NCBI GenBank assembly: GCA_024403855.1
Contig: JAKSRC010000008.1
Span: 4,584 to 68,583, forward strand
DNA length: 64,000 nucleotides
From: Saccharofermentans sp.
Lineage (GTDB): Bacteria; Bacillota; Clostridia; Saccharofermentanales; Saccharofermentanaceae
Direction of reading: 5' to 3'
In this document: positions 25,046-53,531 of the stretch, one piece after another
How positions within the stretch are numbered: the first letter of the stretch is position 1
Layout of the letters: each line of letters begins with the position of its first letter
The notes under the pieces: model-generated
Seen by the model: only the letters and a program-made list of their open reading frames with translations
Told to the model about the DNA's origin: nothing
Database searches by the model: none
Made by a program: the position numbers and the translations under genes

Positions 25046-25120
25046 AGGGGAGTGGCTCAACGGTAGAGCAGCGGTCTCCAAAACCGCCGGTTGCGCGTTC
25101 AAATCGTGTCTCCCCTGCCA
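25046..25120 (+). tRNA. trnW: tRNA-Trp (anticodon CCA), CCA end encoded
   Basis: The hand-folded cloverleaf has acceptor AGGGGAG/CTCCCCT, D stem GCTC/GAGC and anticodon stem GCGGT/ACCGC. The anticodon loop is CTCCAAA and the T loop is TTCAAAT. Confidence 0.9.
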
Positions 25121-39375: not shown

Positions 39376-39828
39376 TCAGATCGTAAGATCCATTTCTTCT
39401 TTCATTGTTATTGCCTTGCCGAAAACAACTCTTATGCTCAAAACTACAAGTGCCATGAAAAGAGCTACAATTGCAAGTATCCAGCAACCATTCCAAATGA
39501 ATCCACCGACAGTGCAGTCAACAGCGATTCCAAGTAAAGCGCATGTGATAACCATCATTATTTTGGTATTTGCTCTGTCGAAAACCTTATCTTTGCTCAT
39601 GTTATGCATCATCATGAAGAGCGGAACAAGCACAAGATAACCTCCGACTGTTCCCAGATAGAAAACAACTGTAAGTCCGATAACTCTGGGAAGATCAAAT
39701 ACTTCGGCCCAGCAATAAGCAATATATCTCGAAATTACTACACCAAATATATCGGCAACAACAGCCATAGCCGTGAACAGAACAGTAGCTATCTTTGCCC
39801 ATCTGAGAATTACATCATCATATCGCAT
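39376..39828 (-). CDS. DUF2975-like small membrane protein (150 aa, 4 TM)
   Basis: A four-TM protein immediately upstream of a YozG-like HTH gene, a recurrent pairing in Firmicutes. The family name is recalled, not searched. Confidence 0.55.
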   Translation of the reverse strand: MRYDDVILRWAKIATVLFTAMAVVADIFGVVISRYIAYCWAEVFDLPRVIGLTVVFYLGTVGGYLVLVPLFMMMHNMSKDKVFDRANTKIMMVITCALLGIAVDCTVGGFIWNGCWILAIVALFMALVVLSIRVVFGKAITMKEEMDLTI

Positions 39829-39995
39829 CTGCTTCTTTCCTCCTAGTTAATGATTAAGCATGCTTCATGTTCAGTATGCTAACACAGCAATTTTTGAATT
39901 TCAAGAGTTTTTTATCGTTTTTCAATATATTTTTCTCGATTTCAAGTAACAGTCCATAAACCGTACTTCTCGCTTGTGCCTTCTTTTCGAGTATT

Positions 39996-40037
39996 AACAA
40001 AACAAAAACAGGGCTTTGAGATAACCTCAAAACCCTG
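39996..40037 (-). terminator. intrinsic terminator of the GGDEF gene
   Basis: The minus-strand stem is CAGGGTTTTGAG / CTCAAAGCCCTG (12 bp, one G-U pair) with a 5-nt loop, followed by TTTTTGTTTTGTT. Confidence 0.85.
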
Positions 40038-40061
40038 CACAATCTTCATTTACTTTTTCTA

Positions 40062-41204
40062 TTATCTCTTCGCCAGACTCTGCTTCTGCTCATACATAAG
40101 CTCATCTGCCTTATTCAAAAGATAATCGAACTCTTTCTTGTTGGTACAATCACCTGTTGCAATACCAATACTAAGATCAAGCACATACTGCTGGCCATCT
40201 TCTTTGTTCTTGGCATTTCTTTCAGTGATCTTTCTTCCGATAGTATTTACCAGCAAAGTAACATCGTCGTCTGATGCACCATTTGCAACAATTACAAATT
40301 CATCTCCGCCAAAACGGAAAACAACGATACCGCTTCTGGGAATATCATCAACAGCTTCCTGCAAAGCATTGGCAATATCGATCAAAGCCTTATCACCTAT
40401 AAGATGGCCATAAGTATCATTAATTGCTTTGAACTTGTTTGCATCAATTACGAAAATCGAGATGTTGCGGAACACATCTTTCTCGAAAAGCGAGTCCTTA
40501 TAAATATAGAACGAATTCTTGTTTTTAAGTCCTGTAAGGCCGTCCTGCTGCTCGTGATATGCAATGTTATTAAGGAACAGGAGCAAAATCGAGAAAAGAT
40601 AACCTATCTGAGCTACCGTAATTCCATAGAAAATCATCTGACATATAGCTGCGACTGCCATCGGAATCGGAAACAAAAGATAGCCTTTGTACATCTGTCT
40701 CTTCTGACGGCTCTTCTCTTTCCTGACAGCAATCATGTTAATAACAAACGCTGCAATCAGATAACCCCATTCAACGATCCAAGTTACGATAACGCCATTA
40801 CCTCTGTGATAAATAGCATCAGCATCTACTGAGAAGTAGAAACTCGTAAGTGGATTAAGCAGTATGCTTAAGCACAAAGCTATTGCCGGCAATCCTGTTC
40901 GAAGCACGATCAACTTAAGATTTGTAATGTATCTGAATCGAACGAGGATGTATACAAACCATGCATAAGTTCCCAAAACGAATGAAATGAAATACAGAAT
41001 ATTAAAAAACTGGACTGCAATATCCGTCGTACCTCTGAATACATATGCCATAATATCCGCCAGGCTGGCAACTATCAGAGCTGTAATCATCACAAGCATG
41101 ATCATCTGCGAAGTTTCATTACGTGATGATGTTCTTCGGCACTGTATCAGGAGTATCAAACCAAAAACTATGGCAATCAAATTAGTCTGAACGTAGTAGA
41201 GCAT
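40062..41204 (-). CDS. membrane-anchored diguanylate cyclase (GGDEF domain)
   Basis: About 7 N-terminal TM segments. The C-terminal GGDEF domain has an intact RFGGDEF active site. The start is taken at ATG 41202-41204 after GAGGGGTGGA; the track start at 41219 is TTG. Confidence 0.85.
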   Translation of the reverse strand: MLYYVQTNLIAIVFGLILLIQCRRTSSRNETSQMIMLVMITALIVASLADIMAYVFRGTTDIAVQFFNILYFISFVLGTYAWFVYILVRFRYITNLKLIVLRTGLPAIALCLSILLNPLTSFYFSVDADAIYHRGNGVIVTWIVEWGYLIAAFVINMIAVRKEKSRQKRQMYKGYLLFPIPMAVAAICQMIFYGITVAQIGYLFSILLLFLNNIAYHEQQDGLTGLKNKNSFYIYKDSLFEKDVFRNISIFVIDANKFKAINDTYGHLIGDKALIDIANALQEAVDDIPRSGIVVFRFGGDEFVIVANGASDDDVTLLVNTIGRKITERNAKNKEDGQQYVLDLSIGIATGDCTNKKEFDYLLNKADELMYEQKQSLAKR

Positions 41205-41337
41205 AGTTCCACCCCTCAAAGCTTAATACTCGAATCTTATCATTTTTAGGGTTGGTTATAAATACATCAGGCAATATGTATAGCTTTAACAAGCAAAAGT
41301 ACTAGAGATAAATGTACATTACTTTGATATATTTTCG

Positions 41338-41366
41338 TTGCACAACGTATCTTCTCGTGATATCAT
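41338..41366 (+). promoter_or_regulatory. candidate sigma-A promoter of the nine-gene operon
   Basis: TTGCAC (41338-41343), a 17-nt spacer ending in TGa, then TATCAT (41361-41366). It lies 34 nt upstream of the first ATG. Confidence 0.55.
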
Positions 41367-41399
41367 CCGGTTAATAGATTTGATTGGAGGATTTTTTAT

Positions 41400-41852
41400 A
41401 TGGAAACTAATAAGGATACTAAGAATACAAATGAATCCGCTTGGCATCTTACTGCCTACGATTATCTCTTAACTACTGCAATAGAAAAGAGAAAGGAAAA
41501 CATTTCCGTCATTGAGCTAAGCAAGAAACTTGATTACAAGAGATCGAACATATACAGAATGGAAAGCGGTTCAATTGACTTAAAGGTATCTACCTTCCTC
41601 AATTATCTGCACGGATTCGGATATCATTTAGAGATTATGAAAGACAAATCATCTTCTCTCAATGTCACAGAAGACAACGCAACTAATGTCGATATAACTG
41701 TCGAATCTGGCGATTTATCCTATATCATCGAGACTTTTGATGTTAATAAGCAAAAGTTCGAAAAAAGGCTCAGCAAGAAAACCAGATTAATGCTTTTAAG
41801 ATTTCTTCTTAAGGAATTCGAAGACGAGCTTCAACTAGAAGAAGACAAATAA
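41400..41852 (+). CDS. XRE-type HTH protein with an acidic C-terminal extension (operon gene 1)
   Basis: A GGAGG site lies 9 nt upstream. ISVIELSKKLDYKRSNIYRMESGSIDLKVSTFLNYLHGFGYHLEI fits a Cro/C1-type HTH. The C-terminal 70 aa are unassigned. Confidence 0.7.
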   Translation: METNKDTKNTNESAWHLTAYDYLLTTAIEKRKENISVIELSKKLDYKRSNIYRMESGSIDLKVSTFLNYLHGFGYHLEIMKDKSSSLNVTEDNATNVDITVESGDLSYIIETFDVNKQKFEKRLSKKTRLMLLRFLLKEFEDELQLEEDK

Positions 41853-41867
41853 TGGAGAAAAACTAAT

Positions 41868-42578
41868 ATGACACGTTTATTTGTAACCGGTGATCTTCAC
41901 GGAGATCACGACTGGGCTAAATTAAATACAAAAAACTTCCCAGTTCAGAAGGAACTAACAAAAGATGACTATTTAGTCGTGCTTGGAGATTTAGGAGCAG
42001 TTTGGGACGGCGCAAGAGGCGACAAATACTTGCAGAACTGGCACAGTTCAAAGAATTACACTACACTCTTTGTAGGTGGCAATCACGAGAACTATGACAT
42101 TTTGGATGCAATGCCTGTAACAGAATGGCAAGGCGGAAAGGTGCACATGGTGACAGATTCACTCATCCATCTTATGAACGGACAGGTTTATAATCTGTGC
42201 GGAAAGAAAGTTTTCGTCATGGGCGGAGCGGAAACATCTGATAAGGAACGTCGCAAGGAAGGCGTCTCCTGGTGGTCACACGAACTCCCAACTTCAGAGG
42301 AGTACGACGAGGCACTCGAGAATCTCAGCCTGCACGGCAACAAGGTAGATCTCATCTTCACTCATTGTGCGCCGGAGACGACTGTAACGAATATGTTCAT
42401 GCCAAAGATGTCCGTACGCAAGCTAAATGACCTGACATCCTTCCTTGATATGATCGCGCAGACCATAAGCTTCAATGACTGGTATTTCGGTCACTACCAC
42501 GAGGAGTCTGACAAGGGCAAGTTTCACCTGCTCTATAACAGCGTAATCGAATTACCGGAGGATAACGATAATGCATAA
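41868..42578 (+). CDS. calcineurin-like metallophosphoesterase, type 1 (operon gene 2)
   Basis: All metal-ligand blocks are present: GDLHGD, VVLGDLGAVWDG, GGNHENY, IFTHCAP and GHYHEE. Confidence 0.8.
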   Translation: MTRLFVTGDLHGDHDWAKLNTKNFPVQKELTKDDYLVVLGDLGAVWDGARGDKYLQNWHSSKNYTTLFVGGNHENYDILDAMPVTEWQGGKVHMVTDSLIHLMNGQVYNLCGKKVFVMGGAETSDKERRKEGVSWWSHELPTSEEYDEALENLSLHGNKVDLIFTHCAPETTVTNMFMPKMSVRKLNDLTSFLDMIAQTISFNDWYFGHYHEESDKGKFHLLYNSVIELPEDNDNA

Positions 42579-42999
42579 TCCTATACTCAGCATTTTTGAA
42601 GCTTTGGCAGTATCAGGCTTTCCAAATAAGGAAGATCTGAGGATCGAAGTCCTCGGTTGTATCAAAAGCTTTATCTCGTATTTTGACGATGTAGTAAATG
42701 AACAGATCTATTACTCCGCTACGTCAAAGGATAAGCAGGACATCTGCATTATGAAAGCACATGATGAAAGAAGGAGAAAAGCCCACGATCTTTGCATTGC
42801 TTCATGTATCCGACTTAACAGTATCTGCGATGAGATGAACATCGATCAGATATGTGATTTCGATGTCGAGGACAGAAAACAGGTTGCTGAATTTGCCGGA
42901 CTTATCGCCTGCGACCTGTATTTTACCAATATAAAGTGCGGAGAATCTCTAACGAACTGGTTAAACAATTCTCCGTTGAAGAAAGAAGGACAACCATGA
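42571..42999 (+). CDS. hypothetical protein (142 aa, operon gene 3)
   Basis: Has a GGAGGA Shine-Dalgarno site. It overlaps gene 2 by 8 nt and gene 4 by 4 nt (ATGA). No motif recognised. Confidence 0.65.
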   Translation: MHNPILSIFEALAVSGFPNKEDLRIEVLGCIKSFISYFDDVVNEQIYYSATSKDKQDICIMKAHDERRRKAHDLCIASCIRLNSICDEMNIDQICDFDVEDRKQVAEFAGLIACDLYFTNIKCGESLTNWLNNSPLKKEGQP

Positions 43000-43583
43000 A
43001 CTACTACATTTCAGATATGCACTTCGGCCATCAGAATATCCTTAAATACGATGCTCGACCATGGAAAGACGTACATTCCATGGAATATGACATGATCGAC
43101 TGGTGGAACTTGAAAATAACCGCCAAGGATGATGTATACATTCTCGGTGATTTCTGTTTCGGCGGTTATGATGATTGGAAAAGGATTCTTTCGCAGCTTA
43201 ACGGAAGAAAGCATCTTATCATTGGCAATCACGACTTAAAACAGTTCCCGTCGGATATAATCTCGCTCCTTGCTGAGCCTCCCGTTCCATACAAGGAGAT
43301 TACGGACGGCAGTTACAGAGTACTCATGTGCCACTATCCTTTGATTTCATATAACCATGACACCAATCCAAATACATTGATGTTTTACGGGCACGTCCAC
43401 AACACCAATGAATTCGTTGCGGTAATGGAATCTGTAAAGACAATGAAAGAATGCTGCCAAGCCGTAGGCTTTGATTACCGGGGGCGTTTATATAACTGCT
43501 GGGGCGGATTCTTCGGTTGGAAGCCTGCTTCTCTTATGGAAGTCCTGACAAATAAGTATTCAAATATCAGATTAAGAAAATAA
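42996..43583 (+). CDS. calcineurin-like metallophosphoesterase, type 2 (operon gene 4)
   Basis: The start is taken at MNYYISDMHFGH. Blocks present are SDMHFGH, YILGDFCFGG, IIGNHD, LMCHYP and YGHVHN. The sequence is clearly different from gene 2. Confidence 0.8.
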   Translation: MNYYISDMHFGHQNILKYDARPWKDVHSMEYDMIDWWNLKITAKDDVYILGDFCFGGYDDWKRILSQLNGRKHLIIGNHDLKQFPSDIISLLAEPPVPYKEITDGSYRVLMCHYPLISYNHDTNPNTLMFYGHVHNTNEFVAVMESVKTMKECCQAVGFDYRGRLYNCWGGFFGWKPASLMEVLTNKYSNIRLRK

Positions 43584-43595
43584 AGGGGGCATGAT

Positions 43596-44522
43596 ATGTC
43601 TGACTCTATGCTCGAGAAAGAATACAATGTATATTCAGAAAAATACGATATTCACGGCGTCGTAAAAGACTACGGCGTGGCAATTAAGCTTATCTTCACT
43701 TATGAAGGCAAAGAAGTTGAGATGGGGCTTTCGAGAGGTATCGATACCGATTACAAAAAACTCGGGAAAGACCTTATCGAATCTTATATTGAAAAGCTCG
43801 CTTCACCAAACGGAGAACGGAAACTCCAGCTCCACTATTGGTATATCAGCCCTCACGAGATCCATGGTACAACTTATGTTATAGGACACGGCATTGTTAC
43901 AGGGCACAAAAAACTCGCAAATTCCAACTTTATCTATACTTCCGCTGTCGAAGCTGTCTTTATCGATGAAATCAACGAAGAAGCTGTACTTACTACCAGG
44001 AACAGCATTTATCACTGTCCTCTCGCATACTTAAGATTCGATAAACAGGATGAACAGCCTGAACTGTTACCTGATTATGAGAGATTAAAAGAAAAGTATA
44101 AGGATACTATCTTATACCCTTCCATTGAACCTGGTAATGTTCTTTTGGCACTTGCGGATTTCTGTAAATACTACTTTCACTCCCTGTATTATGTGCCTGC
44201 GGATGCAAAAGAAATCAAGCCTGTCAAGTTCAGCGGATATGCACATATCGGAACATTTCAAGACAGCTATCTGATTCAGGCAGAAAACGGCATTGATCTC
44301 AGATATTTCCCGCACTATCAGAATATCGAATTCTACTCGGGAGAAACCAATGGTTGTCCGTTCTATATCGAGAACATCGGAAGCTCGGTCATTTATGCGC
44401 GCACTTGGGTAGGAACGATCAAGCTTGAGCCCGGCGACCGCAAAGAAGTAAATAAAGAAAATGCCGAAGATGAACCTCCGTCTCTCGCAAACGGAGATCT
44501 TTATCCGGCAGGTATTTTTTAA
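43596..44522 (+). CDS. hypothetical protein (308 aa, operon gene 5)
   Basis: Has an AAGGGGG Shine-Dalgarno site. No catalytic or binding motif recognised. Confidence 0.65.
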   Translation: MSDSMLEKEYNVYSEKYDIHGVVKDYGVAIKLIFTYEGKEVEMGLSRGIDTDYKKLGKDLIESYIEKLASPNGERKLQLHYWYISPHEIHGTTYVIGHGIVTGHKKLANSNFIYTSAVEAVFIDEINEEAVLTTRNSIYHCPLAYLRFDKQDEQPELLPDYERLKEKYKDTILYPSIEPGNVLLALADFCKYYFHSLYYVPADAKEIKPVKFSGYAHIGTFQDSYLIQAENGIDLRYFPHYQNIEFYSGETNGCPFYIENIGSSVIYARTWVGTIKLEPGDRKEVNKENAEDEPPSLANGDLYPAGIF

Positions 44523-44782
44523 TGGAAAGATCTTATATCAACAGACGTATTTCACAGAACAAAAAGTGGACGGGCAAAGACTGCAAAAGGCACAAGCACA
44601 GCTTTACCGACCCTTGCATTGTCCGCCTGACCGGTAACGAGAACAAACACATTGGAACCTCAAGCTACACTGCGCTGAAATGTGAGAAATGTAATTCTTT
44701 TACGAATCTTAAATTTGTATCCGAACAACCGAAAGGACTGCCTGTTCTCGTTTTCGAAAGACGCATTTTGCAATCACGTTAA
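44522..44782 (+). CDS. small basic Cys/His-rich protein, putative zinc ribbon (86 aa, operon gene 6)
   Basis: Junction with gene 5 is a TAATG overlap. CKRH...C and CEKC pairs suggest a C/H4 metal site. The N-terminus is very basic. Confidence 0.55.
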   Translation: MERSYINRRISQNKKWTGKDCKRHKHSFTDPCIVRLTGNENKHIGTSSYTALKCEKCNSFTNLKFVSEQPKGLPVLVFERRILQSR

Positions 44783-44810
44783 AGGATATTAAGTTCAAGG
44801 AATATATCGA

Positions 44811-45005
44811 ATGCGAAAAATAATAGTCCGAAATAAGATAAGATGTCTTGAATGTGGTGACGTAATAGAAAGCATATCTGTTCACGATTACAGAAAATGC
44901 TCCTGTGGAAAATGTGCCGTAGATGGTGGGAATGAATATCTAAGACGCACCTTCGCTTATGAAGGCGTTTACGAGGAATTAAGTGAGTTCGATACAGGAG
45001 AATAA
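44811..45005 (+). CDS. small zinc-ribbon protein (64 aa, operon gene 7)
   Basis: The motif CLECGDVI...CSCGKCAVDGG (CxxC ... CxCGxxxxDGG) is present. An AAGGAA site lies upstream. Confidence 0.6.
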   Translation: MRKIIVRNKIRCLECGDVIESISVHDYRKCSCGKCAVDGGNEYLRRTFAYEGVYEELSEFDTGE

Positions 45006-45010
45006 ATATC

Positions 45011-46513
45011 ATGGAAGATTTCGTAAAAACAGATAACATCGAATATAAGATCTATAAAGAAGCAAAAATCGTATTGAAGAAATCAGTCTGCGAGGCTTAT
45101 CCTCTGGGACGCATACTGATCTGCCAAGATTCAGGCGAAAATCTCAATGTTATCTGCGAGGTCAAAACAGATTTTACAAGTCCGAAAGCAGAAATCGAAG
45201 ATATCAAAAAGATCCCACTCCCCTCTTCAGATGAACGTTATATCTATATTGGTGTCTTTCCAAAGGAAACCAACGAAAGTCTTGTTGATGTAGAACGTCG
45301 AGTAATCGACAGCTTGGAAACTAGAGACCTGTTAGAATACAAAAACAGAATCTTCCAAAAGGATGAACCAACAGTAAAAAAAACGTTCTATATTATTGCT
45401 AATCTCGAAAAAGACACAGAGGATATATTCTTTCGGGATTATGGAATCACAAGCTTTAGAGAAAAGCTCAGACAGGCTTGCGAAATATCCTTTGCACAAA
45501 TTACAGCCGAGCCTAGCAACACACTGAAAGAGCAGATTCGTTCTTGGGCCAACAAAGTGTCTTTCAACGAGTTTGAAAAGGAGATAGAAAAGACGATTCA
45601 GGGACAACCAGAATTAAAATCAGTTGTCTTCCATGTTTATCACTACCTTTCAAACATTGCAAAGGAACTGCCCATTGATAAGCAGAGCATAATTCTCACG
45701 GGGCCTTCCGGATGTGGCAAAACCGAAACCTACAGAGCCTTAAAAAAGTATTTTGAAAAGGAGATTCCGCCACTTGTCGTAGATCTCATCGACACGAACC
45801 AGATAACCGGCGAGGGCTACAAGGGCAAGGATACCAATCACATAGTATCGGCTCTAAAGAAAGCCAAATCAGATGGCATAGGAATCGTGTTCCTAGACGA
45901 GTTCGATAAAAGGCTCATCCCAAGCCACTCGAGCCACGGAGACGATGTAAACAGAGAGATCCAAGGCCAGCTTCTTCTTGCAATAGAGGGCTGTGATCTT
46001 GATGGCATTGACACGAGTAACACACTCTTCATCGGCATGGGCTCCTTTAACGAGGCCAGAGAAAAAAGAAGACAGGAAAAGCACATCGGCTTTGGTGTTG
46101 AAAGAACGGATGCTGCTTGTGAACACTACTCTCCAATCACCAGAGAGGAGATGATAAAGCTTGGTGCATCCTACGAGCTCATAGGACGCTTTAGTCACGT
46201 AATAAACTACGGTCCCCTCTCTCCCGAGGCACTCGACAGGATAATCGACATGAGGGCTTCCGAGGTATCCGAGTCCTATGGAGTAAGGCTTTCCATAAGC
46301 GACAGCATGAGAGCCTTCCTCCATCAGAATTCCAATACGGAATTCGGAAACAGGCTCATTGAATCTCTGATCAGAGAGGCTGCGACCAGGGCCATGATAG
46401 AGATCCTTTCCGAAGAGATCAGCGCAAAGGAAATCGTGATAACGGGCAAGGATTCATATATCATAAAGAAGGCAGTTACAGAGGAACAACAACAGCAGAG
46501 GGAGGCATTATAA
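45011..46513 (+). CDS. ClpX-like AAA+ unfoldase with a novel ~200-aa N-terminal domain and no ClpX zinc-binding domain (operon gene 8)
   Basis: Walker A is GPSGCGKTE. A pore-1-like loop GEGYKGKD matches ClpX GYVG. Walker B is IVFLDEFDK. LFIGMGSF matches ClpX ILFICGGAF. An IGF-loop-like KHIGFGVE is present. ASYELIGRFSHV matches ClpX LIPEFIGRLPV. Confidence 0.8.
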   Translation: MEDFVKTDNIEYKIYKEAKIVLKKSVCEAYPLGRILICQDSGENLNVICEVKTDFTSPKAEIEDIKKIPLPSSDERYIYIGVFPKETNESLVDVERRVIDSLETRDLLEYKNRIFQKDEPTVKKTFYIIANLEKDTEDIFFRDYGITSFREKLRQACEISFAQITAEPSNTLKEQIRSWANKVSFNEFEKEIEKTIQGQPELKSVVFHVYHYLSNIAKELPIDKQSIILTGPSGCGKTETYRALKKYFEKEIPPLVVDLIDTNQITGEGYKGKDTNHIVSALKKAKSDGIGIVFLDEFDKRLIPSHSSHGDDVNREIQGQLLLAIEGCDLDGIDTSNTLFIGMGSFNEAREKRRQEKHIGFGVERTDAACEHYSPITREEMIKLGASYELIGRFSHVINYGPLSPEALDRIIDMRASEVSESYGVRLSISDSMRAFLHQNSNTEFGNRLIESLIREAATRAMIEILSEEISAKEIVITGKDSYIIKKAVTEEQQQQREAL

Positions 46514-47032
46514 ATGTTAGGACATCCAAAATATAAAAAGGGCGATATCGTTCGCTTCAATACCATGTCATACGACGACGCGCATCACGAAATAGAGCCA
46601 CATCCCGTTAAGTCGATCGGCGAGATATACATCGTGGATGCTTATGGTACCTTCGAGCAGGATGACGAGGTTTCTTATGACATCCTGATACCCGGAGTTG
46701 TCTTGGTAAAGCACTGCGTCGAAAGCACCATAACCGAGCTGATAAGAAGCGCTGACGATCCACATGAAGATGATTACGTTAAGTTTGACAAGGATACCAA
46801 CATAATGCTCGTTGCTGCCGTCTGTCTTCTGCTCGCCTTTGATGCCAAGGAGGGTCAGCGCGATTTGAATATGGTTAGGAAAATGCTCAATCTGAACTCG
46901 ACCATGATCTCAAGGGATGGCATAAAAAGACCTGGTCTGGAATGGCTCTTCTATGACTTCAAGGATAGAAATGGAAGCATTAATCTGGTTATAGATGCTT
47001 TTAAGGCATATAAGAAAACCAAGGATTTATGA
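46514..47032 (+). CDS. hypothetical protein (172 aa, operon gene 9)
   Basis: The ATG directly abuts the gene 8 stop, and a GGAGG site lies upstream. No motif recognised. Confidence 0.6.
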   Translation: MLGHPKYKKGDIVRFNTMSYDDAHHEIEPHPVKSIGEIYIVDAYGTFEQDDEVSYDILIPGVVLVKHCVESTITELIRSADDPHEDDYVKFDKDTNIMLVAAVCLLLAFDAKEGQRDLNMVRKMLNLNSTMISRDGIKRPGLEWLFYDFKDRNGSINLVIDAFKAYKKTKDL

Positions 47033-47287
47033 GACATGTTTTCTTCCGTAAATAAAAGAAAGGAGTCTGAGACTTGTTTGCTGCAGAATCATTTCCTTGA
47101 CAACACCTTCACAAGGAACCTCATAAGAATCCTTTTATGAGAGCAGCCCGGGCACTCGAGTTTTTGTTTTGCACAAACAAAAAAGATCGGTAACCAAAAA
47201 CGAACAGTTTTTGAGTGTATACCGTCGATTAAAAAATGAAATAACCGTAGCATTCCTATAGACTTATGAGTCTAGACACCACAATAC

Positions 47288-47617
47288 TCATTCAGTGACG
47301 TTTTTCTTAAAAAGAGAAGGATAATTTGTACGCCCGTCGAAAATGTGGTACACGATTACTTTGTCTTCGGACACTTTGTATATAGAGATATATGTTCCTG
47401 CAACGACAAACCTAAACCCATCTTCCGACAGGTCGGGATCGTTTATTAGCGGGCCGGAAAACGGGTGTTTTTCTAATCGTTCCAAGGAATTCAGTATCTT
47501 GTCAGTTATCCTACGAGCAGATTTCGGGCCAACAAGTGTCAAGTGAAGCAGTGCAATGTTTTCCAAGTCTTCTTGCGCAGACTCAAGAATTTCTATACAA
47601 ACCGGGTTACTGCTCAT
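47288..47617 (-). CDS. type II toxin, RelE/ParE family
   Basis: 109 aa. It overlaps the upstream antitoxin gene by 11 nt. The C-terminal ...VIVYHIFDGRTNY is typical of ParE-like toxins. Confidence 0.75.
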   Translation of the reverse strand: MSSNPVCIEILESAQEDLENIALLHLTLVGPKSARRITDKILNSLERLEKHPFSGPLINDPDLSEDGFRFVVAGTYISIYKVSEDKVIVYHIFDGRTNYPSLFKKNVTE

Positions 47618-47870
47618 AGATATTGTTCAACCTATTCCTGGATTCGGAAAGACTAAATGTCTTACATCCGTTAATTCTACTTTGCTCAGTTGCAGCCAGT
47701 TTAGCCTTAAGTTTGTATGTCTCTTCGAGTCGCTCGAAAGCCTCTATGCTCATGACAACGAGATCGCCTTCGCCATTTTTTGTTATGTAAATTGGTTCAT
47801 CATTTGTGTGAGCCAAATTAGATATTTCTGTGTAATCATTTCTCAATGTCGTAGAAGATTTAATCAGCAT
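47607..47870 (-). CDS. type II antitoxin, Phd/YefM family
   Basis: 87 aa. The sequence TTLRNDYTEISNLAHTNDEPIYITKNGEGDLVVMSIEAFERLEE is the Phd/YefM N-terminal fold signature. Confidence 0.8.
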   Translation of the reverse strand: MLIKSSTTLRNDYTEISNLAHTNDEPIYITKNGEGDLVVMSIEAFERLEETYKLKAKLAATEQSRINGCKTFSLSESRNRLNNIYEQ

Positions 47871-47944
47871 AATTATACCGCCTTGCAGAATTATACGATA
47901 ATTATATCATTATTCTACAATATTTCACCACTTTTTCGCCAATC

Positions 47945-47974
47945 AAAAAAGGGTTCAGAAAAACTCTGAACCCC
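47945..47974 (-). terminator. native tRNA-Arg intrinsic terminator, now separated from the tRNA by insertions
   Basis: The minus-strand stem GGGTTCAG / CTGAACCC is 8 bp and perfect, followed by TTTTTT. It lies directly 3' of the 45-nt tRNA fragment DR1. Confidence 0.75.
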
Positions 47975-47984
47975 TTATAAATAC

Positions 47985-48029
47985 TGGTGATCGTGAGCGG
48001 ATTCGAACCGCTGGCCTACCGCTTAGGAG
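47985..48029 (-). repeat. DR1: 45-nt copy of the tRNA-Arg(CCT) 3' part (anticodon loop to CCA), distal att site
   Basis: TGGTGATCGTGAGCGGATTCGAACCGCTGGCCTACCGCTTAGGAG is identical to 49233-49277 and to 53455-53499. Confidence 0.9.
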
Positions 48030-48112
48030 CGTCAAAAGAACAACTAAAAACATAGAAAGGACGGGGATTTCCGGGCTTTACATTCCGTTCTTAAGCCACT
48101 CTTCAGCCACTT
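48030..48112. repeat. conserved 83-bp arm, copy 1 (adjacent to DR1)
   Basis: By eye it is about 85 percent identical to 49278-49360. It contains GGACGGGGATTTCCGGGCTT and a tandem AGCCACT motif (AAGCCACTCTTCAGCCACTT). Confidence 0.8.
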
Positions 48113-48125
48113 AATTTCTATTTCC

Positions 48126-48713
48126 TCATCCTATATATCTTTGTGAATAAGTTCCCGTAATCAATGCGATAATGTCTTCTTCATCCCAATACTCATTAGG
48201 AAAAATCGTAATGCTGTCCTTGTGTTTACGAATAATTCGGTATGGGGTATCCGTATTATCATACACATGAAGAATATCACATAAAGACATTAACTCTTTT
48301 ATGTTGGCAAGCGACTTGTAAAAACGTGTTTTGACTTTTTCTCTATCAACATCATGACCACCTTGCATGACACGTGACTCGACTCTTGCAACATTCAATT
48401 CAGGATCGGCAGTCAATACAAATACGCACTTAATAAAATACCCTTCAGCCTTTGATTTCCGAAGAATATCCATCTTGTATTTCGAAGATAAGACAGTCTC
48501 AAATGTAAGATCAGACTTTGCCTCTATAGAATCATATCGCTTTTTGTCAACAAACTTGGCAGCTTCCTCATTTTCCATTCCTGTTGAAGACACGACATCA
48601 TCCGCATTAGTGTATTCGCCAGCAATTTCGAAAAACTTGGTTATCGTACTCTTACCAGATCCATTAGGCCCGGCAAAACACAAGAGCATAGGTTTTCTTA
48701 AAGCGTTATCCAA
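48126..48713 (-). CDS. zeta-toxin/COG4185-like P-loop kinase/ATPase
   Basis: Walker A FAGPNGSGKST lies near the N-terminus. The size is about 195 aa. The start overlaps the upstream small gene (TTG at 48713; an alternative ATG lies 8 codons in). Confidence 0.65.
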   Translation of the reverse strand: MDNALRKPMLLCFAGPNGSGKSTITKFFEIAGEYTNADDVVSSTGMENEEAAKFVDKKRYDSIEAKSDLTFETVLSSKYKMDILRKSKAEGYFIKCVFVLTADPELNVARVESRVMQGGHDVDREKVKTRFYKSLANIKELMSLCDILHVYDNTDTPYRIIRKHKDSITIFPNEYWDEEDIIALITGTYSQRYIG

Positions 48714-48978
48714 TATTTACCTGCTTTCCATCCGAATCAACCAATACAGGTGCCTTTTTGCTCTTGTCATATACGGCCAGCGGCTTTTTACAAACTTTAG
48801 CTTTTCTCTTTGCGTTGCTGACAGCCTGCCTAGCTCTTTTATCCATATCTGCATCATCGGGAGAAAGAATTCCTGACTCAATCAACTTAGCGCTAGTAAC
48901 ACGCTTCTTGGCAACTTTGACTTCCATATTATCTATCTTCACAACATGCTTAATTACTTTTTTCTCTTCATCACTCAT
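48706..48978 (-). CDS. small basic protein, putative cognate antitoxin/partner (90 aa)
   Basis: Has an ATG start with a GAAAGGAAG site upstream. It overlaps the P-loop gene. No motif recognised. Confidence 0.5.
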   Translation of the reverse strand: MSDEEKKVIKHVVKIDNMEVKVAKKRVTSAKLIESGILSPDDADMDKRARQAVSNAKRKAKVCKKPLAVYDKSKKAPVLVDSDGKQVNIG

Positions 48979-49150
48979 GAGTCAGTACTTCCTTTCGTAT
49001 TTTTGTATTATTTTAACTCAAAATGCGTAAAAATGTCCTGAAAGAAGTTTTTGGGTTTATCCTCCTATGAAAAGAAAGAATACCACTTGATCTTGCAAGT
49101 TCCGCAGGCATTTTCCTCAATCAGCTGCGGTCTGCTTTTAGAAAAATAGA

Positions 49151-49223
49151 AAAACCACCTGTGATACGAGTTCCGCAGGCGCTTTAGCGCCGAGGACCTG
49201 TTTGAAGTAGCACAGGTGGTTTT
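49151..49223. terminator. long nested stem-loop flanking DR2
   Basis: AAAACCACCTGTG (49151-49163) pairs with CACAGGTGGTTTT (49211-49223). The inner hairpin is GGCGCT-TT-AGCGCC. T-runs lie on both sides. It occupies the same position relative to DR2 as the tRNA terminators do relative to DR1 and DR3. Confidence 0.55.
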
Positions 49224-49232
49224 CTATGACCT

Positions 49233-49277
49233 TGGTGATCGTGAGCGGATTCGAACCGCTGGCCTACCGCTTAGGAG
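49233..49277 (-). repeat. DR2: 45-nt copy of the tRNA-Arg(CCT) 3' part
   Basis: Identical to DR1 and to the 3' 45 nt of the intact tRNA. Confidence 0.9.
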
Positions 49278-49360
49278 CGTCCAAAGAACAGCTAAACACA
49301 TTGAAAGGACGGGGATTTCCGGGCTTCACGCTCCTTTCTTAAGCCACTCTTAAGCCACTT
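49278..49360. repeat. conserved 83-bp arm, copy 2 (adjacent to DR2)
   Basis: Homologous to 48030-48112. It contains AAGCCACTCTTAAGCCACTT. Confidence 0.8.
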
Positions 49361-49621
49361 GATAATTAGTGAACCAAAACATTATGGTATTACTACATTT
49401 CAGCAAAACAGAGGGATTTTGTAATGTAAAATAGAGGTTCGTTATCGTCTTGTTTTCGAAGCCAACCGATTGAAGAATAATAAAAAACTCATTCAATCCT
49501 TTTATAGTCTGATTCTGGCATCCGTTCTATACAACTCGCGCTTCAAAAACTACCCTCGTTCATCCAAAACTTTCTGTATTCTATCCTGTATTATTTCAAC
49601 TACAGATGCCAAAGCTTTCTG

Positions 49622-52600
49622 TCATGTTCTTTCGGCAATAATCGTCGATACTCTATCATTAATTATCGGCAAAACAGCATCAAGACTCTTTTGATCCACA
49701 AAATATGGCGGAACTTCCTCTCTTATTACGATCAATACCGCAGGATCGTTATTATCAATTACAGATGCGGATAGAAGAACGTTCTTATAAGAAGTTATGA
49801 CAGTATCATCCAAAGGCTGAATAAAAGTATTATTCTTGTTAAACTTCTCAAGTGCTATTATAGCAGAAGATTCGAATGCAGATATGCTCATTGGATTGCT
49901 ATCTTGTGTTGCAACCACATTCTGAATCTCATCACTCATACAAATCCTGATGAATTCCCAAGCGCCATCGGCAACTACTGAAGGTGCACTAGCTGAAATA
50001 CCGATAGAAGTTTGTACTGAAATTACCGGTCCGCGACCATCAGTTGAAGGATATCCCAAAAGTGTCATGTTTTTTGCGTTAGACCCATTTTTATTTAAGA
50101 AATAGCGAAAATCTGGATACCAGGTATCCTCTGCATTGGTGCACATACTAAAAGATTTATCATTGACATTATTCTTTACATAGTCACATAGAGCACGAAA
50201 AGATTCGTTATCAAAATTGACTTTCTTTCCGTCAATACACGTGTCACTCATATATGAATACAGAGTGCAGATGGCTTCGAGTTGAGACTGATTCATCGGA
50301 TCAGCACCATTGCATATCTCATTAACAAATTTTGTATATTCATCAAAGGTAAAACCTAATTGGCCGTTACTGACATTAGATTTGTCTGTTTCTATACCTG
50401 ATACCGTAAAACTCACCGGCATATAGAGAAGTTTGTCATCAATCTTAGATGCACTTATTACATTAGAGAAATAGTCTGCTTCATTGATTCCATTTTTGCC
50501 TTTGATATATCTACTCAGATCCAGAAGATATTCTTCTGACTGGATCAGTCTGAAATCATCTGCATACAAGATTATGTCCGGGCCATTACCGGACAATATA
50601 TCGGTAACAAGTTGATTGCCGAGTGCTGATACCCCATTATAATATATGTCCATGATCTCATCATGATTTTTAGCATCACTGTAATCAATGTAATCAGCAA
50701 TACTGAGCTTATTTTCTAACAAGACAAAATAATCCCCGTTTGTCTCATTGAACACTCTGATTGCTTCACAGATCGAATACTCTAAATCAGTCCTTCCGAC
50801 TGTAGCTGCCGAAAGCATTGTCTTGCCGGCATTAGGATTCTTTTCAGTTTTCTCAAGAACGATAATCGTTGGAACGTATATTAGTTCTCTATCAAACTCA
50901 GTAAGCAAATCACTATCTTTTATCATTCCTGCAAAAACATACTTGTTGTCTTTAACGGAAAGAAGATCCATTCCGATCAGGGTTTTCCTGTTAACATTAC
51001 AGCTGTTATAAGAGAAAACTTCTTCCAATTCCTTTGATGCAAAATTTATGACTTTTACGCCGTATTGATCTTTAAAATATGTCTTTCCATCTAATGATGA
51101 CAGACTAGTTCCATACTTGATATTCTTGAGCCAAGAGTATTCTTCATCTTTGTTTTTTATTTCTCCGGTCTCAAGATTCAAGGAGATCAGACTCACATTA
51201 TTTGAAGAACAAACAAGAAGGATTTCTGTTTCTGAAACAGGTATATAATTTTTGAAATAGTTGATAGATGAAAAATGAGGATCGCCTATTAGATCAACAA
51301 ATTTGCTATTGCCCTCTTTACTGATCGCAAAAGATAAAGTGCCCGTCTTACGGTACCAGGATACTGTATAATCTCCAATAGTCCAGGAATCCTCATAATT
51401 AATAGGGTTTTCTTCTTGAGAATCATATGGAATGTTTTCCAACTCTTCTAATTCACCGACGGTTCCCGTTTCCGGATCTATCTTAACCAAATAACAATTA
51501 GTCTCATTACTGTTAACAGGACGCACAGTATCGTGCAGCCTGAGATCAATACCATCATCATTAATTGTAATGTTGTCAATTTCTCTATTGAAACGAACTT
51601 TGCTAATATCGATAGATTTTATTAACTCTCCGGTAAAAACATAATAATCAAGATTAATAAAATGCGAATCCGTTTTTGATTGTAAAGATCCTTCCGTTTC
51701 TATAAGGACACCATCTTTATAAGCTCCAAGAATATTTCTTGTGAAATAGTCCAACTTCAAATCTTTGTATTTATCGTCAATTTTAGTTATTTGAGAACTA
51801 AACCAAGTATCACTCGATTTGATCTTTCTAGTATCGGATGTATTTGCAAAAGAACAGCTTGTAAGTAACAATATAGTAGCCAGGCTAAATGCGAGAGCCT
51901 TTCGGCTGTTATCCGCCGGTTTCTTAATACTGATGATTCTCTTCTTCATCAATTGATAACCGCTTTTCATTCCGGTTGATAATGCAAAGAAACCTGTTAT
52001 ATTCGACTGCTGTTGTAGCATTTCTAATAGCGTTCTTGCATATTCTTTAGAAGAATCCGTTCCATAAGCTTTCATGACTGCTTCATCACACGCTAATTCA
52101 CAATCTCTGCCGGAAAGAATAAATGCTACCCAAATGACCGGATTGTACCAATTAAGGAAAAGAACCAAATATCTGATAAGCACCCACAAATGATCACCGT
52201 GTTTATAGTGACATGCTTCGTGACAAATTATGTATTCGCTTATATTTTCAGTACCATCATCAATATAGATTTTGTTAAACATAAGGAACGGTGTTTCCTT
52301 ATGTTTAATACCGTAGATTTTTAGTCCACTCAAAGGATCCTTGCCAAGATATTTTCTTTTTCGTTTGCAATACAATATAAAACCGATATTGTACGCTATC
52401 AGAACAACTACAAGAATAGCAGAAACGAAGTAACAGCAGTTCTGTAGTATAGATTCTATCTTTTTTGATTCATTTGCTTTTACCTTTGATACCGCCACAT
52501 AATTAACCGGTATCTGCGCTTGTTCACGGATTGTCTCATTTACAGGTATATTATTTCCAGGTATATTTGTCTGATTAACAGAAGCGTCGTTCTCTATTTG

Positions 52601-52858
52601 TAAATCTTCAACTATGACCGCCGGAGAATCATTATCTGTTACATCATATGTTGTAGTTTCCGTTTTTGAAGTAAAAATATTGTTCCAAATATCTGCTACC
52701 GGAACATCTATCTTTACAAATGGCATTAAAATCATATAAAGCGGAATGACAATCCAGAAAGCATATTGATGCTTATGGAGAATCTTTCCGTCAGATAAAG
52801 CCCTAATAACGATTATTACGAGTGTTAATATAGAAATTCCAATAAGATAGCGAAACAT
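49622..52858 (-). CDS. BlaR1/MecR1-family (peptidase M56) signal transducer with a very large non-PBP extracellular region
   Basis: 1078 aa. N-terminal TM segments and the zinc motif CHEACHYKHGDH (HExxH) are present. After a further TM segment comes about 740 aa of extracellular sequence. The last ~350 aa look like an ABC solute-binding protein (SGNGPDIILYADDF, GAWEFIRICMSDEIQ). Confidence 0.75.
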   Translation of the reverse strand: MFRYLIGISILTLVIIVIRALSDGKILHKHQYAFWIVIPLYMILMPFVKIDVPVADIWNNIFTSKTETTTYDVTDNDSPAVIVEDLQIENDASVNQTNIPGNNIPVNETIREQAQIPVNYVAVSKVKANESKKIESILQNCCYFVSAILVVVLIAYNIGFILYCKRKRKYLGKDPLSGLKIYGIKHKETPFLMFNKIYIDDGTENISEYIICHEACHYKHGDHLWVLIRYLVLFLNWYNPVIWVAFILSGRDCELACDEAVMKAYGTDSSKEYARTLLEMLQQQSNITGFFALSTGMKSGYQLMKKRIISIKKPADNSRKALAFSLATILLLTSCSFANTSDTRKIKSSDTWFSSQITKIDDKYKDLKLDYFTRNILGAYKDGVLIETEGSLQSKTDSHFINLDYYVFTGELIKSIDISKVRFNREIDNITINDDGIDLRLHDTVRPVNSNETNCYLVKIDPETGTVGELEELENIPYDSQEENPINYEDSWTIGDYTVSWYRKTGTLSFAISKEGNSKFVDLIGDPHFSSINYFKNYIPVSETEILLVCSSNNVSLISLNLETGEIKNKDEEYSWLKNIKYGTSLSSLDGKTYFKDQYGVKVINFASKELEEVFSYNSCNVNRKTLIGMDLLSVKDNKYVFAGMIKDSDLLTEFDRELIYVPTIIVLEKTEKNPNAGKTMLSAATVGRTDLEYSICEAIRVFNETNGDYFVLLENKLSIADYIDYSDAKNHDEIMDIYYNGVSALGNQLVTDILSGNGPDIILYADDFRLIQSEEYLLDLSRYIKGKNGINEADYFSNVISASKIDDKLLYMPVSFTVSGIETDKSNVSNGQLGFTFDEYTKFVNEICNGADPMNQSQLEAICTLYSYMSDTCIDGKKVNFDNESFRALCDYVKNNVNDKSFSMCTNAEDTWYPDFRYFLNKNGSNAKNMTLLGYPSTDGRGPVISVQTSIGISASAPSVVADGAWEFIRICMSDEIQNVVATQDSNPMSISAFESSAIIALEKFNKNNTFIQPLDDTVITSYKNVLLSASVIDNNDPAVLIVIREEVPPYFVDQKSLDAVLPIINDRVSTIIAERT

Positions 52859-52859
52859 A

Positions 52860-53216
52860 TCAATCCTCTTCGATTATTCTACGAAGTTCCTCTAACTGCT
52901 CTTTAGAAAGTTTGTCTGAACACTTTAGATTGGAGATCAGCAATCCAACATTACCGCCATATACTTTGTCCAGAAATGATGTTGTCTCCTCTAGTTCAGC
53001 TTCCGTTCTATCTACTGCAGCACGGAACCATTTGGTTCTCCCCTCCTGATCATAGGAAACCAGTCCTTTTTCAACCATACGATTAAGCAAAGTTATAATT
53101 GTCTGCTTAGACCATCCGGTCTTTGCATCTAAGGCTCTTGTAAGTTCCATTAAAGTCATGGATTTATTATCCCAAAGACAATTGATGATCTTCCATTCTG
53201 AATCAGTTAAACGCAT
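52860..53216 (-). CDS. blaI: BlaI/MecI/CopY-family transcriptional repressor
   Basis: 118 aa. LTDSEWKIINCLWDN..MTLMELTRAL....GWSKQTIITLLNRMVEKGLV is the winged helix of the penicillinase-repressor family. Only 1 nt separates it from the blaR1-like start. Confidence 0.85.
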   Translation of the reverse strand: MRLTDSEWKIINCLWDNKSMTLMELTRALDAKTGWSKQTIITLLNRMVEKGLVSYDQEGRTKWFRAAVDRTEAELEETTSFLDKVYGGNVGLLISNLKCSDKLSKEQLEELRRIIEED

Positions 53217-53237
53217 TAATAATCATTCCTCCGCACT

Positions 53238-53286
53238 GGTCTACTGTTGCTTACCAATATACCGCATTGGTCGACAGCAGTCAACC
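53238..53286 (-). promoter_or_regulatory. candidate blaI promoter with an overlapping imperfect inverted repeat (putative operator)
   Basis: On the minus strand: TTGACT (53279-53284), a 17-nt spacer, then TATATT (53256-53261). GGTCTACTGTTG (53238-53249) and CAGCAGTCAACC (53275-53286) match at 9 of 12 positions as an inverted repeat. They bracket the core promoter. Confidence 0.5.
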
Positions 53287-53420
53287 AGACTGAACAGTTC
53301 ACGTGTGATGATGTTCTCCTGCAAATGTTAACGAACTGGAAATGGCTTGAAATAAAACGCAAGAAGTTCAGATGTTTGGCTTGTTCCGCCACCTTCCGCC
53401 ACTTTCAAGGCAATAACAAA

Positions 53421-53454
53421 GGGGCCAGAAAAACCCTGAACCCCTTGCAAATAC
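53421..53454 (-). terminator. terminator-like hairpin 3' of the intact tRNA-Arg (diverged copy of 47945-47984)
   Basis: The minus-strand sequence GGGGTTCAGGGTTTTTCTGGCCCC is followed by TTTGTTATT. Its stem is weaker than that of the native copy. Confidence 0.5.
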
Positions 53455-53531
53455 TGGTGATCGTGAGCGGATTCGAACCGCTGGCCTACCGCTTAGGAGG
53501 CGGTCGCTCTATCCAGCTGAGCTACACAATC
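53455..53531 (-). tRNA. trnR: tRNA-Arg (anticodon CCT), CCA encoded
   Basis: The reverse complement is GATTGTGTAGCTCAGCTGGATAGAGCGACCGCCTCCTAAGCGGTAGGCCAGCGGTTCGAATCCGCTCACGATCACCA. The acceptor stem is GATTGTG/CACGATC and the anticodon stem is ACCGC/GCGGT, with loop CTCCTAA. Confidence 0.9.

Follow-up and report, generated by a model that had tools for sequence, protein, structure and literature searches.

The question raised by a stretch of 64,000 nucleotides from Saccharofermentans sp. (the window; assembly GCA_024403855.1, contig JAKSRC010000008.1, positions 4,584 to 68,583) is how two short intervals without an integrase gene came to lie in tandem next to a tRNA-Arg(CCT) gene, each of them closed off by a perfect copy of the 3' part of that gene. 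The tRNA gene lies on the minus strand, and "downstream" therefore denotes lower coordinates; the interval beside the tRNA (49278-53454) is termed unit A and the one beyond it (48030-49232) unit B. We consider it likely that a family of small integrative mobilizable elements (IMEs) found in rumen-type Clostridia uses an integration hotspot here, of which this region forms the part next to the tRNA, and, as part of the same reading, that A and B are derivatives of the cis-mobilizable element (CIME) type, decayed and stacked by accretion. The earlier note on this DNA had likewise spoken of tandem accretion of cis-mobilizable or decayed elements, and this proposal, which our results support, coincides with a published model for such arrays that comprises three steps, namely integration, decay to a CIME and accretion (PMC5704250, section 2.3). 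The array fits this model because it combines perfect cores and arms that lack an integrase, a series of decaying relatives, varying occupancy of the site and the spread of unit B between hosts.

The intact tRNA-Arg(CCT) gene (53455-53531, minus strand) was recovered by both ARAGORN and Rfam (69 bits), and was the sole Rfam match between 47 and 54 kb. A 45-mer, TGGTGATCGTGAGCGGATTCGAACCGCTGGCCTACCGCTTAGGAG, which takes in everything from the first anticodon-loop base to the terminal CCA, occurs exactly three times in the window: inside the tRNA gene (53455-53499, minus strand), where it forms a junction of the attL type, as a partial tRNA 3' half at the junction of B and A (49233-49277), and as the most distal partial 3' half (47985-48029). 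The three perfect direct repeats reported in the earlier note are thereby confirmed, and none of 100 shuffles gave a match to the 45-mer with three mismatches tolerated. Tyrosine integrases of the lambda type are well known to target tRNA genes, and the configuration found here, with partial copies that begin at the first base of the anticodon loop and an intact tRNA at the proximal end, is that of a tRNA-targeting tyrosine-integrase island. We know of no other function for a partial tRNA. Scans of viral contigs with the arm described below and with the tRNA half returned no match, and there was no sign of a phage attachment (att) site. The window has a second tRNA gene, tRNA-Trp(CCA) at 25046-25120, whose 3' half is not repeated elsewhere in the window.

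The similarity between the partial copies extends beyond the core. On the element side another 86 nt are common to both (48030-48115 and 49278-49363), with 92% identity over the full 131 nt, and this shared sequence, termed the P arm, emerges as the hallmark of the family. The 86-nt share had been missed in the earlier note, and the extent of the arm is to be revised to approximately 86-103 nt on the distal side of each unit. A scan of metagenomes for the tRNA 3' half with a non-tRNA base after it gave 44 loci (related loci are designated by L numbers), and of the 40 unique right flanks 37 continue from the partial tRNA with one common architecture, namely a spacer of ~25-35 nt, an invariant GAAAGG that starts an imperfect inverted repeat, and a tandem direct repeat of ~9-11 nt (e.g. 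TTAAGCCACTCTTCAGCCACTT). The P arm of unit A (49278-49363; nhmmer E = 3e-42) has these parts in full, with the tandem repeat TTAAGCCACT at 49339-49348 and 49350-49359; that of unit B (48030-48132) has TTAAGCCACT at 48091-48100 and TTCAGCCACT at 48102-48111, and reaches ~48132 through a shared tail, AATTTCTATTTCCTCA. The tandem repeat varies by subfamily (AGCCAC, AACCAC, ACAACCAC, CCGCCAC, CACCC and others). In each case both copies change together, and because such concerted change is expected of arm-type protein-binding sites, the repeats are presumed to be the sites at which the arm-binding domain of the integrase would attach.

A structured RNA or a terminator was also entertained as an explanation for the P arm and is not supported: RNAalifold found no consensus structure for 25 P arms, and the folds of single arms, which pair GAAAGGA with a downstream TCCTTT stretch, have a median z-score of -0.4, leaving only the imperfect inverted repeat. 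Both P arms of the window (48071-48073 and 49319-49321) and the arm of the unit B copy in L011 (~213) have a 1-nt insertion in common (GGGGATTTCC versus GGGGTTTCC) that is absent from the other 38 unique arms, which hints at either conversion between neighbouring arms or shared ancestry. A scan of a genome collection with a 20-mer of the arm, GGACGGGGATTTCCGGGCTT, gave two chance matches (Variovorax and Neorhizobium) among the matches listed; this pattern proved too strict because the window arms carry the private insertion.

As the earlier note had stated, neither interval contains an integrase, excisionase, relaxase or replication domain, and each has a cargo of just two genes. The only Pfam matches in A and B are Zeta_toxin, Penicillinase_R, and Peptidase_M56 together with SBP_bac_8, and PADLOC gave only weak matches at the level of the P-loop for the cargo. 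A tblastn search of the entire window with the family integrases described below found nothing at E <0.2, remnants included. Elsewhere the window consists of ordinary chromosome, with genes such as those for FtsY, RecA, sigma-70 and RnfC/D.

The corresponding integrases are found in the relatives. The protein cluster situated just left of the cores in related loci is a tyrosine recombinase, with matches to Pfam Phage_integrase (2e-15) and Phage_int_M, and the family alignment shows the conserved R, HxxR, H and Y motifs. These integrases are 406-434 amino acids (aa) long, are encoded at the tRNA-proximal end of the element, and constitute a family of 188 clusters at an E of 1e-20 or better; a sequence search of the PDB with a family integrase gave no match. 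An intact integrase gene adjoins the core in L006, L022, L028 and L033. Of these, L006 is a complete 3.0-kb element encoding DnaB_2-like, NikA-like and integrase proteins, which has the repeat TTCAACCAC in both its P and P' arms (the latter being the left flank of the core) and is neighboured, like the island of the window, by genes for a 382-aa protein, a 450-aa protein, RnfD and RnfC. L033 is a complete 7-kb element with GmrSD/HNH, an EcoRI-type methylase, a helix-turn-helix (HTH) protein, RepB, FtsK/SpoIIIE and the integrase. Genes for Mob_Pre and an integrase lie beside the tRNA in L051 (NCBI metagenome-assembled genome GCA_024693185.1, with the integrase named Saccharofermentans sp. by NCBI), as do genes for AAA_25, a NikA-like protein and an integrase in L049, and the 382-aa, RnfD and RnfC genes place both loci at the same chromosomal site as the window. 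In L052, an intact IME with Mob_Pre and integrase genes shares an array with integrase-less units that include the B module, and its P' repeat, TTTAGCCAGGTTTAGCCAC, is close to the P-arm repeats of the window. Thus, an arm combined with a tyrosine integrase, whose absence everywhere the earlier note had named as part of a refutation, does occur at the same tRNA-Arg site in relatives (L006, L022, L028, L033, L049, L051 and L052).

Judged by their gene content, these relatives are small IMEs: an integrase of their own accompanies a relaxase or mobilization function in L006, L033, L049, L051 and L052, a combination that A and B do not possess. In turn, A and B show the structural attributes of CIMEs, in that they are bounded by exact 45-nt cores and family P and P' arms as attL/attR direct repeats, retain only cargo domains with the integration and transfer genes lost, and have IME relatives of the same specificity, with the same core and arms at the same tRNA and with graded remnants. 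That such units may be excised or transferred with the help of a related element is suggested indirectly, by the 99%-identical B module in four divergent hosts and by the shared array with an IME in L052.

These remnants adjoin the P' arms, which fall into two classes. In class 1, the end of the integrase gene is followed by a tandem repeat (e.g. CTTCAGCCACCTTCAGCCACTTTTTGCC), a terminator hairpin and the core, whereas class 2 is a conserved block of ~170 nt that ends in a long hairpin, AAAACCACCTGTG...CACAGGTGGTTTT, and has no evident arm-type direct repeat. Approximately 50 P' flanks were assessed for an integrase. Four have an intact or contig-truncated gene, 15 keep only the last 28-215 integrase codons, always joined to the P' arm, and the remainder are devoid of it, including all three flanks of the window and all of the class-2 flanks (integrase homology in 0 of 19). 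Arms that lack a core are present in L021 (498-590), L025 (1151-1242) and L066 (5540-5630), and also in L032. The integrase remnants and core-less arms together form a decay series of the kind left by internal deletion of integrase-bearing elements.

Unit A has a P' arm of class 1 without the integrase (53330-53454). In this arm the repeat TTCCGCCAC occurs twice (53384-53392 and 53394-53402) and is followed by a terminator-like hairpin (53415-53454) that scored as weak in the terminator scan. The layout is the same as in P' arms beside intact integrases, such as that of L006 with its CTTCAACCACCTTCAACCAC; in the autonomous relatives the integrase gene would end immediately before the equivalent region, and the homology of unit A to L038 and L066 stops at 53329. 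The P' arm of unit B (49066-49232) belongs to class 2, with the long hairpin at 49151-49223. Its block is 94-96% identical in L008, L039, L016, L018, L021 and L025, all of which have unrelated cargo, and stands directly before an intact tRNA in L053, L055 and L057.

Unit B encodes a 195-aa P-loop protein of the zeta-toxin type (48126-48713, minus strand; Pfam Zeta_toxin 2.6e-10, 40.5 bits against a cut-off of 22.3). Upstream of this gene, and overlapping it by 8 nt, the list of open reading frames has a gene for a 90-aa protein (48706-48978, minus strand), a putative antitoxin or partner that is 98.9% identical in L011 and L047. The pair resembles known zeta-type modules (zeta/epsilon-type pairs) in joining a Zeta_toxin-matching protein to a small overlapping upstream gene, but differs from them in that the 90-aa partner has no antitoxin family match, having none in Pfam, NCBIfam or PADLOC.

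A public collection lists the exact 195-aa protein in 44 blocks. The interior of B is 99.1% identical in L011, where the neighbour on the tRNA side is a different one, and the block 48124-49232 is 99.3-99.5% identical in L052-L061, abutting the intact tRNA in L053, L055 and L057; elsewhere too the 99%-identical module begins at 48124, around the end of the P arm. These B hosts represent four backgrounds, with chromosomal flanks that match the window and one another at only 67-76% identity. Near-identity of the module between flanks so far apart implies a very recent transfer of the B module between hosts. In L011 (1-176 in the orientation of the window), unrelated DNA of structured appearance truncates the distal core of the 99%-identical B copy, leaving its last ~21 nt; an insertion element or an intron may end here.

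Unit A encodes a BlaI/MecI/CopY-type winged-helix repressor of 118 aa (52860-53216, minus strand; Pfam Penicillinase_R 6.4e-28, with the NCBIfam matches under their cut-offs), which has 98% amino-acid identity with its homologue in L038, and a 1078-aa membrane protein (49622-52858, minus strand) with an N-terminal Peptidase_M56 domain of the BlaR1 type (1e-26) and a large extracytoplasmic domain that is SBP_bac_8-like (1.6e-5). The juxtaposition of a BlaI-type repressor with an M56 membrane protease recalls the BlaI-BlaR1 signalling system. However, the outer domain is SBP_bac_8-like instead of a penicillin-binding sensor, and the protein scores 76 bits against blaR1_generic, far under the cut-off of 400 bits. 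It belongs to a cluster (C0) that is the commonest cargo of the related loci and comprises 12 large secreted or membrane proteins with SBP_bac_8-like domains from the window and L008, L011, L021, L025, L038, L039 and L047. The outer domains of this cluster have 23-38% amino-acid identity, and the adjacent BlaI gene and M56 part are ~80% identical in DNA and 90-98% in amino acids.

By exact-protein look-ups, the flanks and unit A itself were found only in Logan contigs of the source sample (SRR17543907), A as a 4227-nt core-to-core contig. Versions of ~80% identity adjoin the tRNA in contigs of 317 kb and 586 kb from another species, and adjoin B in L038; A may be an older resident of the site than B. 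The 408-aa integrase of L038 was considered as the parent of unit A and rejected, being 23% identical to the family and belonging to another element beside the BlaI gene. The element with this integrase also has an Rfam pemK RNA motif (RF02913, 56 bits; L038 4848-4965 in the stored orientation, minus strand) within a conserved non-coding stretch of ~350 nt upstream of a 337-aa gene, and a similar stretch that scores under the gathering threshold is present at ~2300-2700 of L049.

Occupancy of the site is polymorphic among relatives, as the earlier note had expected: the sequences of L063 and L064 agree at 99.5% until 6 nt from the end of the tRNA and are unrelated past that point. L063 comes from an isolate assembly (GCA_900107185.1), in which the 382-aa flank protein is named Ruminococcaceae bacterium YAD3003 by NCBI, and has an integrase-less unit of 3.2 kb with the tRNA at one end and a partial copy plus P arm at the other. 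Because an isolate genome carries it, the architecture is not an artefact of metagenome assembly.

Two unusual placements of the family sequences were also seen. In L031 (3853-5105) the usual arrangement is reversed, with a partial tRNA core and P arm that converge with the 382-aa gene homologue; either att sites have recombined by inversion or the genome is organised differently, as this arrangement suggests. In L049 (6047-6160) an arm-like remnant (GAAAGGATGG... then GTTCAACCACCGGTTCAACCACC) lies on the 5' side of the intact tRNA, i.e. on what is the "wrong" side for integration.

The left boundary of the array calls for a reassessment of one further claim. The earlier note had described a hairpin and T-run after the most distal core as the native terminator of the tRNA gene, with a diverged copy after the intact tRNA. 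Both sequences are present: the terminator scan recovered a 13-pair hairpin (47948-47976) and a T-run in the 40 nt that follow the distal copy (47945-47984), and this stretch with its core is 93% identical over 85 nt to 53415-53499. The native status probably does not stand, since an arm-type repeat precedes the hairpin. A single copy, TTTCACCAC (47923-47931), followed by TTTTTCGCC, occupies 47923-47940 as in the P' ends of elements, and the resulting P'-like end (47923-47984) is similar to the P' arms of L011_4016 and others. Given this repeat, and given that the 6.5 kb to the left are variable island DNA, the supposed native terminator is probably the end of a third, older unit. A search with a core-plus-arm profile (nhmmer) found no further core or arm, and hence no third distal att site, in the window.

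The variable region spans ~39.8-53.45 kb, as chromosomal synteny with L016, L018 and L036 stops at a DUF2975 gene (39376-39828). Its remaining portion (39829-47922), which encodes GGDEF and HTH proteins, two metallophosphatases, a 308-aa protein, a 500-aa AAA ATPase, a 172-aa protein and ParE/Phd, is probably older accreted material, and homologues of the genes at 41.4-44.5 kb adjoin a partial core in L005 and L048. The 500-aa ATPase has weak PADLOC matches to DolB and PDC-M37B, and the segment 41400-47870 may be defence-type cargo of an older unit.

Taken together, the comparisons of sequences establish the anatomy of the units, their relationship to the family and the horizontal spread within it, and they suggest the following course of events. 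The integrase of an autonomous IME would recombine through the 45-nt core identical to the 3' part of tRNA-Arg(CCT), and each integration would rebuild the tRNA from element DNA and leave a partial copy at the far end of the element. By analogy with lambda-type integrases, the enzyme would bind the tandem repeats through its arm-binding domain, with strand exchange inside the core. A and B would not be self-mobile, and could be moved either by the integrase of a related IME acting in trans, as the earlier note had suggested, or by co-excision with a neighbouring IME via the outer att sites; excision of this kind may still take place at present. Transfer would call on the Mob or NikA functions of an IME and on a conjugative system provided by something else.

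Several observations weigh against this reading. There is no integrase or integrase remnant anywhere in the window, and no circular or empty-site junction was seen. The two arms of unit A differ in their repeat variant, AAGCCAC on P and CCGCCAC on P', and for this reason A may be a deletion hybrid of two neighbouring units that is perhaps poorly recognised by an integrase. Because its homologues diverge about as much as the host does (~80% DNA identity), A may equally be an old, immobile resident. In most other loci (e.g. L047 and L053), the B block has neither its own P arm nor its own core and belongs to a larger unit, so that B may not have spread as the 1.25-kb unit of the window. Some of these points would be expected if the site were an inert graveyard, in which decayed IMEs have ceased to be substrates of recombination and change occurs only by deletion and by homologous recombination between junction modules of ~130-300 nt after DNA uptake or transfer. 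We regard this as a possible, though not a likely, account. The decay series is clear and core-less arms exist (L021, L025 and L066), the arms of A are mismatched, most loci have no att site at the left edge (48124) of the 99%-identical B block, and the junction modules are both long enough and similar enough for homologous recombination. Yet the window has three perfect cores and each unit keeps both of its arms intact, even though a partial tRNA serves no other known purpose, the P arms remain 90-100% identical across units with unrelated cargo, and intact IMEs share arrays with such units (L052).

An opposite view would hold that the integrase-less units, those of class 2 above all, are a dedicated, maintained family of non-autonomous cassettes, integron-like but anchored at the tRNA and served in trans by the integrases of IMEs. 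The 19 class-2 flanks accompany at least 10 unrelated cargos and never show integrase homology, both ends of the units are highly conserved, integrase-less units are far commoner in an unbiased scan (4 intact integrases among the ~50 assessable P' flanks), and the B module has spread very recently between species. For the integrase-less units as a whole the idea is nevertheless improbable, as class-1 units are plain products of decay, the class-2 arms are wanting in arm-type repeats, and the class-2 block might be a captured former chromosomal flank. Restricted to class 2, the notion of a maintained integron-like family whose members would be inserted, excised and shuffled at tRNA-Arg by IME integrases in trans is less far-fetched, though still doubtful. 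Were it true, the rumen Clostridia would possess an exchange platform for toxin-antitoxin, sensor and defence-type genes. Finally, the array could reflect contigs mis-joined at the repeated tRNA fragment, an outcome that the earlier note had named as one of its refutations. The short-read Logan contigs of SRR17543907 do break exactly at the cores (L003, L004 and L062), so that the order of units is without independent confirmation in that sample, and metagenome contigs that cross shared junctions of 130-300 nt might be chimeric. However, such joins recur in independent assemblies: the junction of B, core and an A-like unit is also spanned in L038, at 97% identity, junctions of B, core and other units are spanned in L011 and L052, and like junctions are crossed by independent contigs throughout L052-L061. 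Together with the A-like unit beside the tRNA in the 317-kb and 586-kb contigs, and with the same architecture in the isolate genome GCA_900107185.1, they render an artefact extremely improbable. On the whole, decay of IMEs and accretion of their CIME-type remnants accounts best for the array.

Island build-up of this well-known kind is here found in a new bacterial group. CIMEs and their tandem accretion have been described for the ICESt1/ICESt3 family of Streptococcus thermophilus and for the composite islands at tRNA-Lys of streptococci (PMC5704250, refs 79-80). As in those systems, the units lie between att sites of a tyrosine integrase with the integration and transfer genes lost, are stacked in tandem with related elements at one target, have integrase-bearing relatives of the same specificity, and show gene capture with toxin-antitoxin-like cargo. 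They differ in their hosts, which are uncultured rumen-type Clostridia (by the names given to the flank homologues: Clostridiales, Ruminococcaceae YAD3003 and Saccharofermentans), in targeting tRNA-Arg(CCT), in having as partners small IMEs (with NikA, Mob_Pre, RepB and FtsK) and not integrative and conjugative elements, and in their very small size (0.66-4.2 kb); their mobilization is putative. The tycheposon islands of Prochlorococcus (bioRxiv 10.1101/2020.12.28.424599) are comparable as tRNA-anchored arrays in which elements lie side by side with only partial tRNAs between them, fragmented integrases and extra partial tRNAs mark older events, and heterogeneity peaks beside the tRNA. However, they belong to a different phylum, the genes found here are of plasmid-type Mob/Rep, and the integrase-less units of this family have kept their two conserved arms much better; the likeness is one of island architecture only, and no relationship of the integrases is claimed. 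With integron cassette arrays the units share the short format of one to a few genes without a recombinase, the conserved sites between them and a tyrosine recombinase from elsewhere, but the window has no IntI, attI or attC, its sites consist of tRNA-derived cores and lambda-like arms, integrase-bearing elements are visibly the source of many units, and the cargo genes have their own promoters.

The published decay-and-accretion model already covers the finding, which leaves the concepts of the field unchanged. What it brings to light is a previously undescribed family of small IMEs specific to tRNA-Arg(CCT), together with its integrase-less derivatives, in uncultured rumen-type Clostridia and with a clear sequence anatomy. 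The occurrence of a 1.1-kb toxin-like module that is 99% identical across hosts ~30% apart in their neighbouring genes shows very recent gene flow through the hotspot, and the well-defined arms, with their core, GAAAGG and co-varying tandem repeats, make the family a simple test system for trans-mobilization and for the arm-site specificity of a tyrosine integrase.

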